Shown piece after piece: positions 22,726 through 30,619 of a stretch of 64,000 nt of DNA (position 1 is the stretch's first letter; every line of letters starts with the position of its first letter). The DNA is from an uncultured Candidatus Saccharibacteria bacterium (GTDB taxonomy: Bacteria > Patescibacteriota > Doudnabacteria > UBA920), in the NCBI GenBank assembly GCA_964532005.1, contig CAZHER010000003.1:21399-85398 (forward strand), in the 5' to 3' direction. Under the pieces are notes generated by a model. It did not search any database, was not told the origin of the DNA, and was given only the letters and a program-made list of their open reading frames with translations. The translations under genes were made by a program, and so were the position numbers.

Positions 22726-23136
22726 ATGAATAGACTAGGAAGAGTGGCTGTATTAATGCCAAGCCCTAACCCGATGTTTGACCATGATGATTTCATGACC
22801 CTTCGAGAACTCCTGAACGGCGTTCTTGGTCAGGAAAAAGTCATTTACAGCGAAGCAGAATATGGGACGGTTGGTTCTGTATTCGAGAGTAGGGCTGAGG
22901 ATATAGATTCGGCGATCTTTCTCCTACCTGGAGATATAGGCTACGAGTATCTTTCCAGCGTTACAGCGGCACAGGTATTCGGCAACAAAACCAAGATTTT
23001 GTTTTCTCTTACGCCGGTTTTGGGTGATACACGAGGCAAAGCATTTACGGTGTTTCGCTACCATAAATACCGGAAACATTTTTTGCGGCTGAAAAAAAAG
23101 ATCGAAAGGTTTTTGTTTCGAGCCGAGTTCGATTAG
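22726..23136 (+). CDS. hypothetical protein
   Basis: Good SD (AAAGGAG 7 nt upstream) and a 136-aa ORF with no motifs. Confidence 0.4.
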   Translation: MNRLGRVAVLMPSPNPMFDHDDFMTLRELLNGVLGQEKVIYSEAEYGTVGSVFESRAEDIDSAIFLLPGDIGYEYLSSVTAAQVFGNKTKILFSLTPVLGDTRGKAFTVFRYHKYRKHFLRLKKKIERFLFRAEFD

Positions 23137-23157
23137 CTTACCCAGGTCATGTAAAAA

Positions 23158-23196
23158 AATCGCGATTGGTCCCACAATGCCAGTCGCGATTTTTTA
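23158..23196. terminator. bidirectional terminator (aatcgcgattgg / ccagtcgcgatt, imperfect) plus T6
   Basis: About 11-bp stem with one bulge, between the convergent hypothetical gene and prfB. Confidence 0.55.
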
Positions 23197-23199
23197 ATT

Positions 23200-24291
23200 T
23201 TATTTTGCTGACATTTCTAAATATTTTTCAACAAAATCATCTATTTCACCATTGAGTATTTTTTCAGGGTCACTGTCTTCGAAATTGGTTCTGTGGTCTT
23301 TTACCATTTTATATGGATGTAGGACATAGCTTCTTATTTGATTTCCCCATTCTGCCGACTTAAACTCCCCTCTAAGCTCGTTTTTTTCTTCTGCAACTTT
23401 TTGGTCTTCTAGAGCTTGAAGTTTAGCTGATAATATTTTTAATGCCAGTTCTTTATTTTGATGTTGGCTTCTTTCATTCTGTATGCTCACTTTTAGTCCA
23501 GTTGGGATGTGTGTGATACGGATTGCTGAGTAAGTTGTATTAACACTCTGACCTCCGTGTCCGGAAGAAGTATTTGCCTCAATTTTTAAATCCTTCGGAT
23601 CTAGCTTAATTTGTTCTTGTTCTTCAAGTTCCGGTAGAAGCTCCAATAATGCAAAAGAAGTTTCCCTTGTATGAGCAGGATTAAATGGGCTTTGTCTGAC
23701 TAGTCTATGCACGCCCATTTCGCTTTTGAATAATCCATAAGCGTAAGGGCCCTTAACTGATACCATAACCGATTTAACCCCAGCATCCGTACCTTTGCTC
23801 ATCTCAACAATCTCAGTTTTAAAACCTCGGCGTTCTGAAAATCTTAAATACATCCGGAGGAGTATTTCAGTCCAATCTTGGGCGTCCACCCCACCTGCGC
23901 CGGCATGCAGGGCAAAAATTGCATTGTGGTCGTCATACTTTTTTGAGAGCAGTGCAATGAACCTATTTTTTCTATACCTTTCTTCTATTTCTTCGGTTTG
24001 CTTGGTTAAATATGCAACAGTTTCTTCTGATTCGTCAGTATTAGTTCGAACCATTTCTAGTAGTTCAGCAGCAGAATTTTCCAAGTCTGCCCAAAAATCA
24101 ACGAAACTTTTGGTTTGGGTATATTCTTGACTTATTTTTTGAGCTGTTTCATTGTCATCCCAAAATTTTGGAACTTGCATTTTTTCAGATAATTCTAAAA
24201 TCCTTTGTTCTTTTTGGTGAAGATTCAAATGTACTTTTAAAGACGTTATTTTTTCAGATATGTTTTCTAGTCTGCTGATTAAGGGGTTCAT
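23200..24291 (-). CDS. prfB: peptide chain release factor 2, uninterrupted (no +1 frameshift site)
   Basis: GGQ motif (SGHGGQSVNTT) and the RF2-specific SPF tripeptide (RQSPFNP); 363 aa in one frame. Confidence 0.85.
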   Translation of the reverse strand: MNPLISRLENISEKITSLKVHLNLHQKEQRILELSEKMQVPKFWDDNETAQKISQEYTQTKSFVDFWADLENSAAELLEMVRTNTDESEETVAYLTKQTEEIEERYRKNRFIALLSKKYDDHNAIFALHAGAGGVDAQDWTEILLRMYLRFSERRGFKTEIVEMSKGTDAGVKSVMVSVKGPYAYGLFKSEMGVHRLVRQSPFNPAHTRETSFALLELLPELEEQEQIKLDPKDLKIEANTSSGHGGQSVNTTYSAIRITHIPTGLKVSIQNERSQHQNKELALKILSAKLQALEDQKVAEEKNELRGEFKSAEWGNQIRSYVLHPYKMVKDHRTNFEDSDPEKILNGEIDDFVEKYLEMSAK

Positions 24292-24315: not shown

Positions 24316-24942
24316 CTATCCTCCGCCAAACAAGTCTTTTAGTCTTCTCCCCCATCCTTTCTTGGCGCTCGTTTTGGGCCTGTCGTCTATTTGTTTTTGA
24401 GTGAGGTGGTCGCGTCTGTCCGAATGTTGATCAGGTTTTATCTGTCCCGATTGAATCATGTCTCTGTACTTCTGGAGCATTCGTTCTGTTTCTGGGTTCT
24501 TTGGTTGCGAGTTTTCCATTTTCCAGTCTTGGATGGGAAATTTGAATCCGGTTTTTTCAAAAATCAGTTTTTCTACTTCGGACAGCACAGGCAGCACTCG
24601 ATTTTGGTCTATGTGGTAACGTTTGTCAAACTCATTGTTTATTTCCTCAACAACTAATTCGTATGATTTATTTTCAAAATAGACCTTTTTTAAAATTTCA
24701 AAGTTCCGCCTACTGAGTTCGTTGTTCTCAACAACCTCTTTTTCAATTTTTTCCATCGCTCTCTCAAAATCTATATGGTTGTTGTATTCTTGCTCGGGAG
24801 AGTGAGATATATCTATGTCGCCAATTAGTTTTTTGCGATCCTTTTCGTTTTCAGGTAACGGTACAAAAATATCTGGATCCAACTTGTCATCTGGCTCAGG
24901 TACTAGTTCCCATGGTTCTTTAGGTTTGTCGATTTCGTTCAT
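24316..24942 (-). CDS. hypothetical acidic or charged protein
   Basis: 208-aa ORF, low complexity and charged, with no motifs. Confidence 0.4.
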   Translation of the reverse strand: MNEIDKPKEPWELVPEPDDKLDPDIFVPLPENEKDRKKLIGDIDISHSPEQEYNNHIDFERAMEKIEKEVVENNELSRRNFEILKKVYFENKSYELVVEEINNEFDKRYHIDQNRVLPVLSEVEKLIFEKTGFKFPIQDWKMENSQPKNPETERMLQKYRDMIQSGQIKPDQHSDRRDHLTQKQIDDRPKTSAKKGWGRRLKDLFGGG

Positions 24943-24947
24943 GGTTG

Positions 24948-25433
24948 TTATTTATTACGAATATAGGTTGCGTAGGTATATTCTTCGTGGGGTTCTTCTT
25001 CAATTTTGGTCCAGTCATTTTCAAAATCAACTTCTGGGAAAAATGCGTCACCAGGGTATTCGCCGTGTACATGCGTCATATACATTTTGTCGGCTTTATT
25101 TAAAAATTGGGCGTACATCTGTGCACCACCGATTATATAAATATCTTCACTTTTCATTGCTTCAATTGCTTCTTCCGGACTTTTGAAAACCAAAACTCCC
25201 GTTGGGTAATCTTCAGGTTTATAATTTCTGGTAACCACAATATTTTTTCTGTTCGGTAGAGGTTTCCCTAAGCGCTTAAAAATGGAGTCGTAGGTTTTGC
25301 GGCCCATTAGTACAGTTTTTCCCGTTGTAATTTTTTTAAAATGTTTTAAGTCATCAGGAAAATTCCAAGGCAGGTCATTGTCACCACCAATCACTCTGTT
25401 TTTTGCTACGGCAACTGGCCCTAGAATTATCAT
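24948..25433 (-). CDS. folA: dihydrofolate reductase
   Basis: DHFR motifs [16 protein letters not shown] and IIGGAQMY. Confidence 0.85.
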
Positions 25434-26269
25434 ATTGCAATAGGAGCTTTAATTCCGGGATGAGGATCATATCCTTCTAGAGTAAAATCTTCGAAATTGA
25501 ATTCAAAGATATCTTTAACTTCTGGGTTAATTTTCATTTTCGGCATTGGTCTTGAATCACGGCTAAGTTGTAAGTTAACTTGCTCAATATGGTTATTGTA
25601 AATATGAGCGTCGCCAAAGGTATGGACAAAGTCTCCAAGCTCACAACCAGTTACTTGAGCCATCATCATGGTTAATAAGGCGTAAGATGCAATATTAAAA
25701 GGAACTCCCAAAAACACATCCGCGCTTCGTTGGTATAGCTGGCAAGATAGTTTGTTGTTAGCAACATAAAATTGAAACATGGTATGGCAAGGTGGCGGAG
25801 CGGTTTTTTTGCCTTTGATCAAAGTTTGCAAGTCCCCCACATTCCAGCCAGAAACAATTATGCGTCTTGTGTCGGGATTGTTTTTAATTAGATCAACCGC
25901 ATTAGCAATTTGGTTTATTTTAATTCCGTCTTTACCTTCCCAGGCAGTCCACTGTTTGCCGTAAATTGGGCCAAGGTCGCCATTCTCATCAGCCCACTCG
26001 TCCCAGATTGTAACGCCGTGTTCGTTTAGCCACTTGATATTAGTATCGCCTTTCAAAAACCAAAGCAATTCATAGATAATGGATTTTAGGTGGACCTTCT
26101 TGGTGGTAATTAAAGGGAAGCCTCCAGCCAAGTTGAACCTCATTTGATATCCAAAAATGCTTCTTGTGCCTGTGCCGGTACGGTCTTCTTTGCCTGTACC
26201 ATTCTCCATAATATATCTAAGCAGTTTTTGATACTGGATGTCGGTTGAGTTTTGGATTTGTTCTGTCAT
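25430..26269 (-). CDS. thyA: thymidylate synthase
   Basis: ThyA motifs DRTGTGT, LPPCH and the catalytic Cys region; coupled to folA by a 4-nt overlap. Confidence 0.9.
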
Positions 26270-26312: not shown

Positions 26313-27005
26313 TTATGCAGGAAAGTCTTTTAATGCAATTCGTCTGACGTATTCCCAAATTTGGTTATGGACTTCTTTCGGAGTTAACATCTCCCCTCCA
26401 TTAGCGCATTCTACCAAGCGCGTGTTTGGAAATAAAGAAGCTATTTCTAGATATACTTTTTCTGCATTACGAAGATGTTTAATATCTGTTTCATGAATGT
26501 CGGTTTTCTTACCTCTATTTTTTACCCTGGACTGCCCTACTTTAGCTGGTACATGAAGAATAATATTAAGATCAGGCTTCGGAATCCCGAATATGTTGTA
26601 CTCTAAGTTATTAAGCCACTTAAAAAATTTTAGCCTCTCTGTTCTATCAGCAATTTTACCTCCCTGATGTCCGGCGTTGGCAGTGACGTATCTGTTGGAA
26701 ATTACAACTTTTCCCTCAGCCAGCCAGTCGTGTAGTTGTTTGCTTGCGTCTAAGCGGTCAACTGCATAAAAAATTGAAGACGCGCTCGGATTCAACTGTC
26801 CGTATTTACCAGAAAGATACTCTTCTAAAGGACCAGCGGACTTTGAGCCGTATTTAGGAAAATCAGCAACCTCAACATTATAGCCCTGTTCCCTTAAGGT
26901 CTCCGTTAAGAGTTGGGTTTGGGTAGTTTTGCCAGCACCATCAGTTCCGTCTAAAACGATAAGTTTGCCCCGCTGTTTAGTTCTTTTTTTTACTGCTTTA
27001 GCCAT
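26313..27005 (-). CDS. tmk: thymidylate kinase
   Basis: P-loop [15 protein letters not shown] and the DRY-like region. Confidence 0.85.
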
Positions 27006-27552
27006 AATTTTCTGCTGTTAATATATCTTCAACCTTTTGGTATAAATTCTCTAGGTCACCAATGTTGTTTATTTTATAATTGGCTTGCTGGCCAAGTCCG
27101 GCTATGCCTGTTTCGGTTGGTTCTGCTTGTTCTATTTTCAAGAAATCTTCGAAACTATTTTCCTGGTCATCAACTTTTTCTTTGCGCTGCTTAGATCGTT
27201 CATAACGGATTTCGGGCGTAGCAGTAATATAAATAATTTTGCCGCCGAAGCGTTTTACTATGTCTAGCTCTTCCTGGAATCTTATTCCTTGTACAACCTG
27301 CAGGGGCTCTGTAGCTTGCGCAAGCCTTTTCGCTACGGCGTTTCCTACAGTGTGGGTTCCAAAAACTTTTCTTAGCGCCATTCCTAGGTCTATTTCATTA
27401 CGGCGCGAAATTTCTAAACCCAAAACATTCAGTATTTCATCTAGTATATGGCTTTGTCGAATATGAAATGCGCCGTGCTTGGCTTGAAGATAATCTGCTA
27501 TTGTATCCTTTCCGGAAAATTGTTCCCCGACAATACCAAGTAAGAGTTTCAT
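26998..27552 (-). CDS. phage-T4-like deoxynucleoside monophosphate (dNMP) kinase family protein
   Basis: The N-terminus MKLLLGIVGEQFSGKDTIADYL closely parallels T4 gp1 (MKLIFLSGVKRSGKDTTADFI, recalled from memory); 184 aa. Confidence 0.55.
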   Translation of the reverse strand: MKLLLGIVGEQFSGKDTIADYLQAKHGAFHIRQSHILDEILNVLGLEISRRNEIDLGMALRKVFGTHTVGNAVAKRLAQATEPLQVVQGIRFQEELDIVKRFGGKIIYITATPEIRYERSKQRKEKVDDQENSFEDFLKIEQAEPTETGIAGLGQQANYKINNIGDLENLYQKVEDILTAENYG

Positions 27553-28376: not shown

Positions 28377-28967
28377 TCATTTCACATCCCCCCTTTTTCG
28401 AAGTTGTTTGGAAATTTGGTGATCGAAGTCCTGTATGTACTTCTTCCGAAGTTCATATACGCGGCGGACTTCAGCTTTTTTGTGAAGCTGCTGAAGCCTT
28501 CTGCGAAGCTGTTCGGCTTCTTGTACATCGGGGTCAAGGCATAGCCTGAACATCTCCTGAATTTCACGCTGTTCCTGAGTGTAGCTTTGCAACGCATCCG
28601 ATATAGCCAGGCTCGTAGCGCTTGTTTCTGCTTGCATCCCAGACTCACCTCTTTTAGTGAGCGCTGACTTGCCTTCTGATGCATAAGCCAGAATCAGGAT
28701 CAGCGTATTTTCATCCGGCTCAATACCTTCCTCTTTGGAAACACGGAAGTGCTCCATCAGGTCAGTGCGAGCAATTTCCGTACCACGGGCATCGAGTGAG
28801 TCAAATCTCCGCCGCAATTCTGTTCCAGTCTCCTCATTGCCAACTCTTTCGAGTCGACGAGAGATGTTGTTATCCAGCTGGACTAGGTCCAGCTCTTTTA
28901 AATTGTTTCCTAGATTTTCCAAAACCTTTTTAGTCCCCCTACCTATTTGTTCCTGCCAAAGCCCCAT
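28377..28967 (-). CDS. hypothetical protein (GC-richer ORF) in the position usually held by rplJ/rplL
   Basis: 196 aa, charged, no motifs. Confidence 0.4.
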   Translation of the reverse strand: MGLWQEQIGRGTKKVLENLGNNLKELDLVQLDNNISRRLERVGNEETGTELRRRFDSLDARGTEIARTDLMEHFRVSKEEGIEPDENTLILILAYASEGKSALTKRGESGMQAETSATSLAISDALQSYTQEQREIQEMFRLCLDPDVQEAEQLRRRLQQLHKKAEVRRVYELRKKYIQDFDHQISKQLRKRGDVK

Positions 28968-29854: not shown

Positions 29855-30619
29855 TTACTTTTTCAAACCTTCGCTTTCAACGAAGTTCTTGATATCTTTA
29901 ATTGTGCTCATGAATTGAGCTGGGAAAATAATGGTAGAGTTTTTTTCTATGCTGATTTCGGCCATGGTCTGTAAATTACGAAGCTGTAATGCAATGGGGT
30001 GTGCCGCCATAACATCCGCAGTCTCGGCCAATTTTTGAGAAGATAAAAACTCTCCTTCAGCAGCAATAATTTTGGCTCGCTTCTCGCGTTCTGCCTCGGC
30101 TTGTTTTGCCATAGCGCGTTGCATGCCTTCTGGTAGCTCAATATCTTTAATTTCAACTACTGGAACAATGATTCCCCATTCTTCTGTATGCATATCTAGC
30201 ACTTTGGTAATTTCCCCGTTGATTTTTTCACGTTCGGACAGAATTTCATCCAGCTGGAATTTGCCAACAATGTTGCGAACAGAAGTTTGAGCAATCTGGT
30301 TAATAGCGCTAATTACACTTTCAATTGCTACAATGCTTTTAACTGGGTCGACGATTTTAAAGTATGCGACAGCAGATACATCCACAGAAACATTGTCTTT
30401 AGTAATGATTTTTTGAGGAGGAACAGGTAATGTCACTGTGCGTAGATCCACTTTTTTAACCCATTCGATGTAAGGAATGACCCAGTTAAGACCTGGTTTT
30501 TGCAAGCGCACAATTCGTCCAAGGCGGAATACAACACCTTGTTGATATTGCTGTACAATTCTTAGCCCAGGAAGTACCACAAACAGGCCTAGTATGATGA
30601 GAAACAGTACAAATCCCAT
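29855..30619 (-). CDS. SPFH/band-7 (stomatin/prohibitin-like) membrane protein
   Basis: N-terminal TM, then SPFH core (VDLRTVTLPVPPQKIITKDNVSVDVSAVAYFKIVDP) and a C-terminal coiled coil (AEAEREKRAKIIAAEGE). Confidence 0.8.
   Translation of the reverse strand: MGFVLFLIILGLFVVLPGLRIVQQYQQGVVFRLGRIVRLQKPGLNWVIPYIEWVKKVDLRTVTLPVPPQKIITKDNVSVDVSAVAYFKIVDPVKSIVAIESVISAINQIAQTSVRNIVGKFQLDEILSEREKINGEITKVLDMHTEEWGIIVPVVEIKDIELPEGMQRAMAKQAEAEREKRAKIIAAEGEFLSSQKLAETADVMAAHPIALQLRNLQTMAEISIEKNSTIIFPAQFMSTIKDIKNFVESEGLKK

Follow-up and report, generated by a model that had tools for sequence, protein, structure and literature searches.

The thymidylate genes of an uncultured Candidatus Saccharibacteria bacterium raise the question of what a small P-loop protein encoded among them does, and where it came from. 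The stretch of DNA that was analysed, called the window here, is 64,000 nucleotides of contig CAZHER010000003.1 (assembly GCA_964532005.1). The gene in question, gene X, encodes a protein of 184 amino acids (aa) and stands second in the minus-strand order dcd-X-tmk-thyA-folA. The first-pass annotation had taken it for a phage T4-type deoxynucleoside monophosphate (dNMP) kinase, domesticated in a module that supplies dTTP. The open reading frame (ORF) of 184 aa at 26998-27552 and its 8-nt overlap with tmk were both confirmed from the ORF coordinates, and Pfam and NCBIfam matches of the neighbouring genes bear out its position between dcd and tmk-thyA-folA in a dTTP-supply module (Table 1).

Judged from its sequence, X is probably an active ATP:(d)NMP phosphotransferase that acts on a deoxypyrimidine nucleotide, and a cellular, vertically inherited protein. 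It would use ATP as donor of the gamma-phosphate and a pyrimidine dNMP (dCMP, dUMP or dTMP) as acceptor, and this acceptor would enter or leave the route from dC to dU to dT that is formed by Dcd or dCMP deaminase, Dut, ThyA or ThyX with FolA, and Tmk. This reading is favoured for several reasons. First, the catalytic residues of X fall on their equivalents in AK1. Secondly, X is homologous to dNMP kinases in PHROG 139 and in the viral structure library BFVD. Third, X lies among genes of the dTMP pathway. In addition, homologues of X are fused to deaminases. Lastly, there is a phage parallel, since in Bacillus phage Bcp1 a homologue of X directly follows thymidylate synthase. The earlier functional guess of a dNMP-kinase-like protein in a dTTP module was a fair one.

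Family membership of X and its relation to phage kinases

X exceeded the Pfam cutoff for AAA_18 (35.9 bits). Its best NCBIfam match, over the full length, was PRK08356 (NF006226, 'hypothetical protein'; 5.3e-26, 91.6 bits), whose cutoff of 189 bits is missed by X and by all 48 of its relatives. Among the PHROGs, which carry no curated cutoff, residues 1-178 of X matched positions 82-260 of the 342 in PHROG 139, 'deoxynucleoside monophosphate kinase' (E 2.8e-17), and this profile was matched by 48 of 48 relatives (best 4.4e-29). A phmmer search of all PDB sequences returned SSO1041 (UPF0200; 3LW7/3H0K) as the sole match (1e-8), and the T4 gp1 structure 1DEK was not matched at E<=10. Two family profiles were also used, A1 from 29 close homologues and A2 from 48 diverse members. 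Against PDB, A1 ranked SSO1041 (2.9e-17) ahead of 1DEK (5.2e-7, in three short pieces), CoaE (6e-5) and AK1 (3e-4). The wider A2 ranked SSO1041 (8e-29) ahead of CoaE (1e-8), AK1 (4e-8), UMP kinase (3e-6) and 1DEK (5.7e-6), so that 1DEK came after UPF0200 with both profiles and, with A2, after the other three cellular families as well. The claim that X belongs with the phage enzyme rather than with cellular kinases is not supported; its best matches are the cellular families PRK08356 and UPF0200, an outcome that the first-pass annotation had itself listed as contrary to its view.

It is very unlikely that X is a phage-derived, broad-specificity dNMP kinase of the T4 gp1 type that was domesticated in the thymidylate operon. 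BLASTP aligned the N-terminal 28 residues of X with T4 gp1 (NC_000866 gene 1) at 12 of 28 identities (43%; E 3e-4 as a single comparison), SGKDT included, and hhalign of the X family with gp1 gave a probability of 95.9% on the C-terminal half. However, the BLASTP alignment was confined to residues 1-28, gp1 is gapped over most of the X lid in hhalign, and the Pfam model DNMK (PF21448) scored X at 26.4 bits against a gathering score of 27.1, with residues 4-41 on positions 2-39 of 232, the N-terminus only. 1DEK was also not among the top 50 Foldseek matches of the X model. The two proteins have in common the N-terminal strand and P-loop (SGKDT), a 'D-x-R' strand, a T-E motif and a C-terminal 'I-x-N-x-G-S-L-E-E-L' helix, but gp1 has 241 aa and a large insertion between the P-loop helix and its 'D-T-R' strand, which X lacks. 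In addition, a short segment replaces the lid in gp1 (1DEK/1DEL), and the lid R116-D129 of X falls in a gap of gp1. In the T4 record gp1 is annotated to phosphorylate dGMP, dTMP and hydroxymethyl-dCMP. In the P-loop, described as T4-like, SGKDT is common to both and the Arg of gp1 'RSGKDT' is Phe in X. The proposed relation to dNMP kinases is sustained by PHROG 139 and hhalign while the T4 type is not. By these comparisons X is a genuine but distant homologue of phage dNMP kinases, with cellular proteins as its nearest relatives.

The phage homologues that are known, among them proteins of Bacillus Bastille-like phages and a Moorella phage, are remote. The likeness to the PHROG 139 kinases extends over the full-length profile, but X is chromosomal, syntenic and found throughout the Patescibacteria (candidate phyla radiation, CPR). 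In a tblastn search of 50,697 phage genomes the best full-length matches were 22-27% identical (E 3e-4 or weaker), and one partial match reached 34% identity over 39% of X. No relative of X was found on IMG/VR viral contigs in a scan seeded with two family motifs. A quick neighbour-joining tree, which is effectively unrooted, without support values and only indicative, placed the CPR proteins in one clade with three phage kinases as its sister group, a point in favour of a phage connection; SSO1041 and a divergent Doudnabacteria paralogue fell outside both groups. A recent phage origin was rejected on the distance of all the phage matches and the empty IMG/VR motif scan, and the claim that X is phage-derived and domesticated is not supported. 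Because the phage matches are distant, because of the tree, and because X keeps one conserved chromosomal slot across Saccharibacteria, Doudnabacteria, Paceibacterota and Moranbacteria, the comparisons point to long vertical inheritance in Patescibacteria and not to recent phage capture.

The family is a large, uncharacterised one of small nucleotide-kinase-like proteins kept by Patescibacteria. Among 1.84 billion cluster representatives, profile A1 matched 264 clusters at E<=1e-30; relaxing the threshold to 1e-10 and then to 1e-3 raised the number to 2,511 and 9,079, and these looser sets may take in neighbouring families. All the named matches of the family profiles were from Patescibacteria, namely the four groups listed above. 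The members carry the public labels 'AAA family ATPase', 'hypothetical protein' and 'dephospho-CoA kinase'.

The last of these labels, applied by JGI to many members, is very likely wrong, and it is extremely improbable that X is a dephospho-CoA kinase (CoaE). Weak matches do exist to TIGR00152 (1e-5) and, with profile A1, to 2grj on the N-terminal 43 residues (6e-5). However, X scored 25.5 bits against the TIGR00152 cutoff of 65.55, it had no match to Pfam CoaE (PF01121), and it is under every CoaE threshold. X also carries Arg91 and the lid arginines of nucleoside monophosphate (NMP) kinases, and its context in about 130 loci is dTMP synthesis, never CoA genes. Furthermore, the archaeal CoaE-like proteins TK1334 and TK2192 (arCOG01045) showed no dephospho-CoA kinase activity in vitro (PMC6650551). 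By their N-termini and sizes, TK1334 looks like a protein of the UPF0200 type and TK2192 like one of the PRK08356 type.

UPF0200 (SSO1041, 'AdkA-like'; PF1294 of P. furiosus) and PRK08356 give the best sequence and structure matches of X. UPF0200 proteins resemble X in size (about 180 aa), strand order, the 'DG-x-R' arginine and an R..R..R lid, but identity to X is only 23-24% in UPF0200 and PRK08356, and UPF0200 has Arg where the X subfamily has Asp38. The literature on UPF0200, SSO1041, arCOG01045 and CPR dNMP kinases yielded nothing beyond Shimosaka 2019.

Catalytic residues of X

The AlphaFold2 model of X had a pLDDT (predicted local distance difference test) score of 92. Its top Foldseek match was 3LW7, and ranks 3-16 were mostly AK1 and UMP/CMP kinases. 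In the BFVD library, many of the best named neighbours of X carry a dNMP kinase annotation. The best viral structural neighbour is an unnamed protein of 328 aa, G8DGT5, with a template modelling (TM) score of 0.82 over the query at 22% identity; it is longer than X by about 140 residues.

An end-to-end profile alignment placed Lys15 of X on the P-loop Lys of AK1 and 'G-I-R91' on 'G-Y-P-R97'. Arg91 is aligned with AK1 'LIDGYPRE' and with SSO1041 'FDGVR'. The X lid 'R119..R123.EK126.D128D129' corresponds to AK1 'QRLLKRGETSGRVDD', and its conserved residues fall on 'QRLLKR' and 'GRVDD' of AK1. The residues invariant in A1 are G9, G14, K15, D38, S49, R50, N52, E53, R61, R91, R119, R123, K126, D128, D129, T146 and E147. 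In the 48 diverse members of A2, G14, K15 and R91 are invariant and R116, R119 and R123 are at least 90% conserved. Judged by these alignments, the layout of X is that of a short-lid NMP kinase, and the P-loop Lys, 'G-x-R' arginine and lid residues that mark the adenylate-kinase-like superfamily are conserved; the model and its structural matches confirm the fold. AK1 and the UMP/CMP kinases thus resemble X over a full-length profile alignment (AK1 4e-8), with the same P-loop Lys, 'G-x-R' Arg and lid 'R..R....[RK]-x-D-D', but identity is 15-20% and X reaches none of their family models. AK1 Arg149 is replaced by Phe137 in X and AK1 Arg44 by Asp38 in the X subfamily, and the base-recognition residues of AK1 cannot be confidently aligned with X.

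The P-loop signature emphasized in the first-pass annotation is less telling. GK-DT occurs in 47 of 65 close homologues, in 34 of 150 family representatives and in 15 of 120 wider matches; GK-GT, GK-ET and GK-ST are at least as common among the representatives and the wider matches. By these counts GK-DT is a subfamily trait and no family hallmark, a further point against a T4-type kinase.

Genomic context and the link to deaminases

In about 130 Patescibacteria loci X occupies the same slot, after NusG-L11-L1, in the company of dcd or dCMP deaminase, thyA or thyX, folA, tmk and dut. In 38 loci from genomes of the Saccharibacteria or Doudnabacteria type, tmk is immediately downstream of X wherever downstream sequence exists, and dcd, thyA, folA, rplA and prfB usually lie within 5 kb. 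Close relatives have dcd-X-tmk and, after it, either thyA or a thyX that stands in for thyA-folA. At least one dTMP-pathway gene lies within 5 kb of X in 78 of 80 further loci from metagenomes. Among these metagenome loci, the gene immediately upstream (n=61) is dCMP deaminase in 37, folA in 9 and thyX in 8, and the gene immediately downstream (n=55) is tmk in 19, folA in 8, dut in 7, thyA in 4 and thyX in 4. Relatives at 30-40% identity show several orders: dcd-thyA-folA-X-tmk-dut, dCMP deaminase-X-dut, L1-DCD-X, L1-dcd-thyA-folA-X-tmk-MazG, and SecE-NusG-L11-dCMP deaminase-X with thyX or thyA-folA on the other strand.

The context also ties X to a known defence enzyme. The N-terminal part of NF041025, 'anti-phage dCTP deaminase', was matched by 34 of 48 family members. 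Positions 154-327 of the 630 in the PADLOC model 'dCTPase' match X end to end (E 4e-5), and relatives match it down to 3.7e-15. The CPR dCMP deaminase that adjoins X is ComEB-like and matches the C-terminal deaminase part of the NF041025 and PADLOC dCTPase models. When homologues of two neighbouring genes occur as one fused protein, this is a classical sign of joint action on the same metabolites, which for the deaminase and X would be deoxycytidine nucleotides. Depletion of dCTP by the defence enzyme depends on both its kinase-like and its deaminase domain (bioRxiv 10.1101/2021.04.26.441389). The AvcD paper does not discuss the P-loop domain. The anti-phage dCTP deaminase (Tal et al.; AvcD-type) thus resembles X in its kinase-like domain and in its concern with deoxycytidine-nucleotide metabolism, but it is fused, longer than 350 aa and located in defence islands, whereas X is a stand-alone protein of 184 aa in a housekeeping, ribosomal-protein neighbourhood. 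The domain order, kinase-deaminase, is also the reverse of the gene order, deaminase-X, and in the window the partner of X is Dcd, which has another fold than dCMP deaminase and no PADLOC match. X was rejected as a defence system on its housekeeping setting, the lack of a deaminase fusion and the weak PADLOC match.

These observations allow a wider proposal, which we put forward tentatively and hold to be possible rather than probable. X may be a CPR-wide, previously unrecognised housekeeping kinase of deoxypyrimidine nucleotides, paired with a dC deaminase, working for example on dCMP/dCDP interconversion or on dUMP/dTMP. The deaminase-X pair would then be the unfused, cellular counterpart, and a possible source, of the anti-phage dCTP deaminase, with the phage dNMP kinases as a sister branch. 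If true, the family would point to a function, open to test, for the essential, unexplained 'kinase' domain of the anti-phage dCTP deaminase.

The same pairing could be explained if X were no metabolic kinase but served the deaminase (Dcd or dCMP deaminase) as a partner that regulates it or binds nucleotides, much like the kinase-like domain of the anti-phage dCTP deaminase. X would then bind or sense dC/dT nucleotides or ATP to control flux. X is directly downstream of the deaminase here and in the 37 of 61 metagenome loci noted above, and X and dCMP deaminase together span the model of the fused defence enzyme. This explanation is nevertheless unlikely, since the full NMP-kinase set (P-loop Lys, R91, lid arginines and DD) is conserved beyond the needs of simple binding, and X is equally often beside tmk, thyX, folA or dut. 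Moreover, the Saccharibacteria partner is Dcd, and because Dcd and dCMP deaminase differ in fold a conserved physical partnership is less likely.

Several points weigh against reading X as a deoxypyrimidine-nucleotide kinase. First, the Arg of the NMP-binding helix (AK1 Arg44, E. coli Adk Arg36) is missing in X, and Asp38 takes its place in X and its close subfamily; Arg is found at position 38 in 105 of 120 wider family members, in SSO1041 and in AK1. The AK1 Arg at this position contacts the acceptor phosphate. Because Asp38 replaces it, the acceptor of the Saccharibacteria-type subfamily could differ. That subfamily has an extra Arg, R51 in S-R-R-N-E, which could be a relocated arginine that offsets Asp38. 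Secondly, UPF0200 genes in Sulfolobus and Pyrococcus stand among RNA-processing and not dNTP genes, and from this setting the role of UPF0200 may be linked to RNA. On account of that setting, a simple transfer of function from SSO1041, the nearest solved relative, to X was rejected, and so was the converse. Third, no function is assigned to TK1334 and TK2192 (PMC6650551). Lastly, X occurs together with Tmk, and its role is not obviously needed by the textbook pathway.

The loci behind the second point can be described further. In the Sulfolobus locus (L137 4398-5997) genes for a CCA-adding enzyme and LigT lie upstream of SSO1041 and a PF01877 RNA-binding gene overlaps downstream, and in the Pyrococcus locus (L136 3546-7426) ProRS lies upstream of PF1294, with PF01877 nearby.

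The position of Asp38 bears on one more alternative, that X acts on a salvage substrate other than a dNMP, either as a deoxynucleoside kinase (dNK) substituting for thymidine or deoxycytidine kinase or at the step from dNDP to dNTP instead of Ndk. P-loop kinases that phosphorylate a hydroxyl, such as CoaE and dNK, typically have an acidic residue close to the acceptor, and in the Saccharibacteria-type subfamily Asp38 stands where NMP kinases have their phosphate-binding Arg. Uridine-kinase models gave weak matches in 23 of 48 relatives, and a step not overlapping with Tmk would fit the coexistence of the two proteins. However, this alternative is quite improbable. Most of the wider family has Arg at position 38 as given above, the extra R51 could compensate, the pattern of the lid and R91 fits NMP kinases best, and the Foldseek comparison with dNK structures was weak (TM about 0.48).

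Replacement of Tmk by X was considered for Paceibacterota loci without an adjacent tmk and was rejected; longer loci show tmk adjacent, or tmk-dut 3-4 kb downstream (L060, L074). As tmk is adjacent or 3-4 kb away, X coexists with Tmk and does not replace it.

The operon in the window and its meaning for Patescibacteria

Table 1. Coordinates of gene X, its predicted catalytic codons and neighbouring features in the window, with the paralogue loci of relatives
Feature	Position	Strand	Remarks
Gene X, 184-aa P-loop kinase, PRK08356-like / dNMP-kinase-like family	26998..27552	-	begins MKLLLGIVGEQFSGKDTIADYL
Walker A codons G9-E-Q-F-S-G14-K15-D-T17	27502..27528	-	G9, G14, K15 invariant in 29 homologues
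Arg91 codon (G-I-R), equivalent of Arg97 in AK1 'DGYPR'	27280..27282	-	invariant in A1 and A2
Lid codons R116-Y-E-R119-S-K-Q-R123-K-E-K126-V-D128-D129	27166..27207	-	R119, R123, K126, D128, D129 invariant (A1)
dcd, dCTP deaminase, 196 aa	27558..28148	-	Pfam DCD 1.8e-41; TIGR02274 194.6 bits, cutoff 92.8
tmk, dTMP kinase, 230 aa	26313..27005	-	Thymidylate_kin 9.2e-27; TIGR00041 83.1 bits, cutoff 83.25
thyA, thymidylate synthase	25430..26269	-	Pfam Thymidylat_synt 8.2e-121
folA, dihydrofolate reductase	24948..25433	-	Pfam DHFR_1 1.6e-51; 4-nt overlap with thyA
208-aa ORF without Pfam match	24316..24942	-	5 nt past folA; co-transcription possible
prfB-like release factor, conserved downstream neighbour	23200..24291	-	downstream in most related loci (tblastn)
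Hairpin, 17-bp stem, A-run and T-run flanks	23154..23195		terminator scan; consensus match only
Paralogue X2 in Doudnabacteria-type loci	L037 3828-4382; L008 3859-4407; L036 2615-3172; L113 8569-9117		

The window has a G+C content of 40%, and its relatives are metagenome-assembled genomes of Candidatus Saccharibacteria. X is chromosomal and lies between rplA and prfB, with a SecE-NusG-L11-Band_7-L1 block directly upstream of the dTTP genes. The gap from the dcd stop to the X start is 5 nt, and the last 8 nt of X (26998-27005) overlap the tmk ATG: ATGGCTAA. From these distances X is probably translationally coupled to both dcd and tmk. The start codon of X is backed by co-linear N-termini in 28 homologues. 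PCRF and RF-1 domains were seen at the prfB position in homologous loci. The hairpin past prfB is likely the terminator of the minus-strand unit; it sits between the convergent prfB (-) and an ORF at 22726-23136 (+) and resembles a terminator that works in both directions. A promoter scan of the window was at chance level (14 found, 15 expected).

A Walker-A motif scan of the window, which is blind to pyrH and ndk, found no other NMP kinases; its hits were FtsE-like, Tmk, X, helicase and LepA-type ORFs. No dut, dCMP deaminase or thyX was found by tblastn in the window (1-64000). If dut is missing genome-wide too, Dcd would need to be a bifunctional dCTP deaminase-dUTPase.

Several further features of the window and of related loci were recorded. 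A Band_7/SPFH gene (29855-30619, minus strand) lies between rplK and rplA, and as the same insertion is present in the relatives L001 and L002 it is a conserved trait of the L11-L1 operon in this lineage. The dTTP genes are flanked by a 196-aa ORF (28377-28967, minus strand) and by the 208-aa ORF of Table 1, neither of which matches Pfam, and L001 and L002 have unannotated ORFs at the same relative positions. Doudnabacteria-type loci carry a second, divergent paralogue, X2, with 25-27% identity to X and with 'IIESLYSWEE' where X has the 'G-I-R' arginine. X2 adjoins dut in L037 and L113, and the order in L037 is dCMP deaminase-X2-dut-X-tmk. ThyX (Thy1) fills the thyA-folA slot, with X unmoved, in L001 (7300-8988), in L053 (5557-6912, minus strand) and in 19 of the 80 loci L056-L135; its length, read in two loci, is 562 and 451 aa. 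This is analogous gene displacement inside one conserved cluster. In L052 (3759-4988) the gene immediately before the X homologue encodes a duplicated dCTP deaminase of 409 aa, in which the DCD domain occurs twice. In L054 (6169-6498) and L096 (11390-11716) a MazG-family pyrophosphatase follows tmk where dut is usual, and may be a non-homologous enzyme that substitutes for the dUTPase.

Patescibacteria have tiny genomes and rely on salvaged nucleotides. Because X is kept in the thymidylate cluster across classes despite such small genomes, it is probably important for the supply of DNA precursors. A small enzyme of the NMP-kinase fold in a nucleotide operon is of a familiar kind, and no established view is overturned. 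Once defined, the substrate of X would supply a step for metabolic reconstructions of Patescibacteria, correct a widespread annotation and, by way of the fused homologue, help to explain the kinase-like domain in the anti-phage dCTP deaminase.

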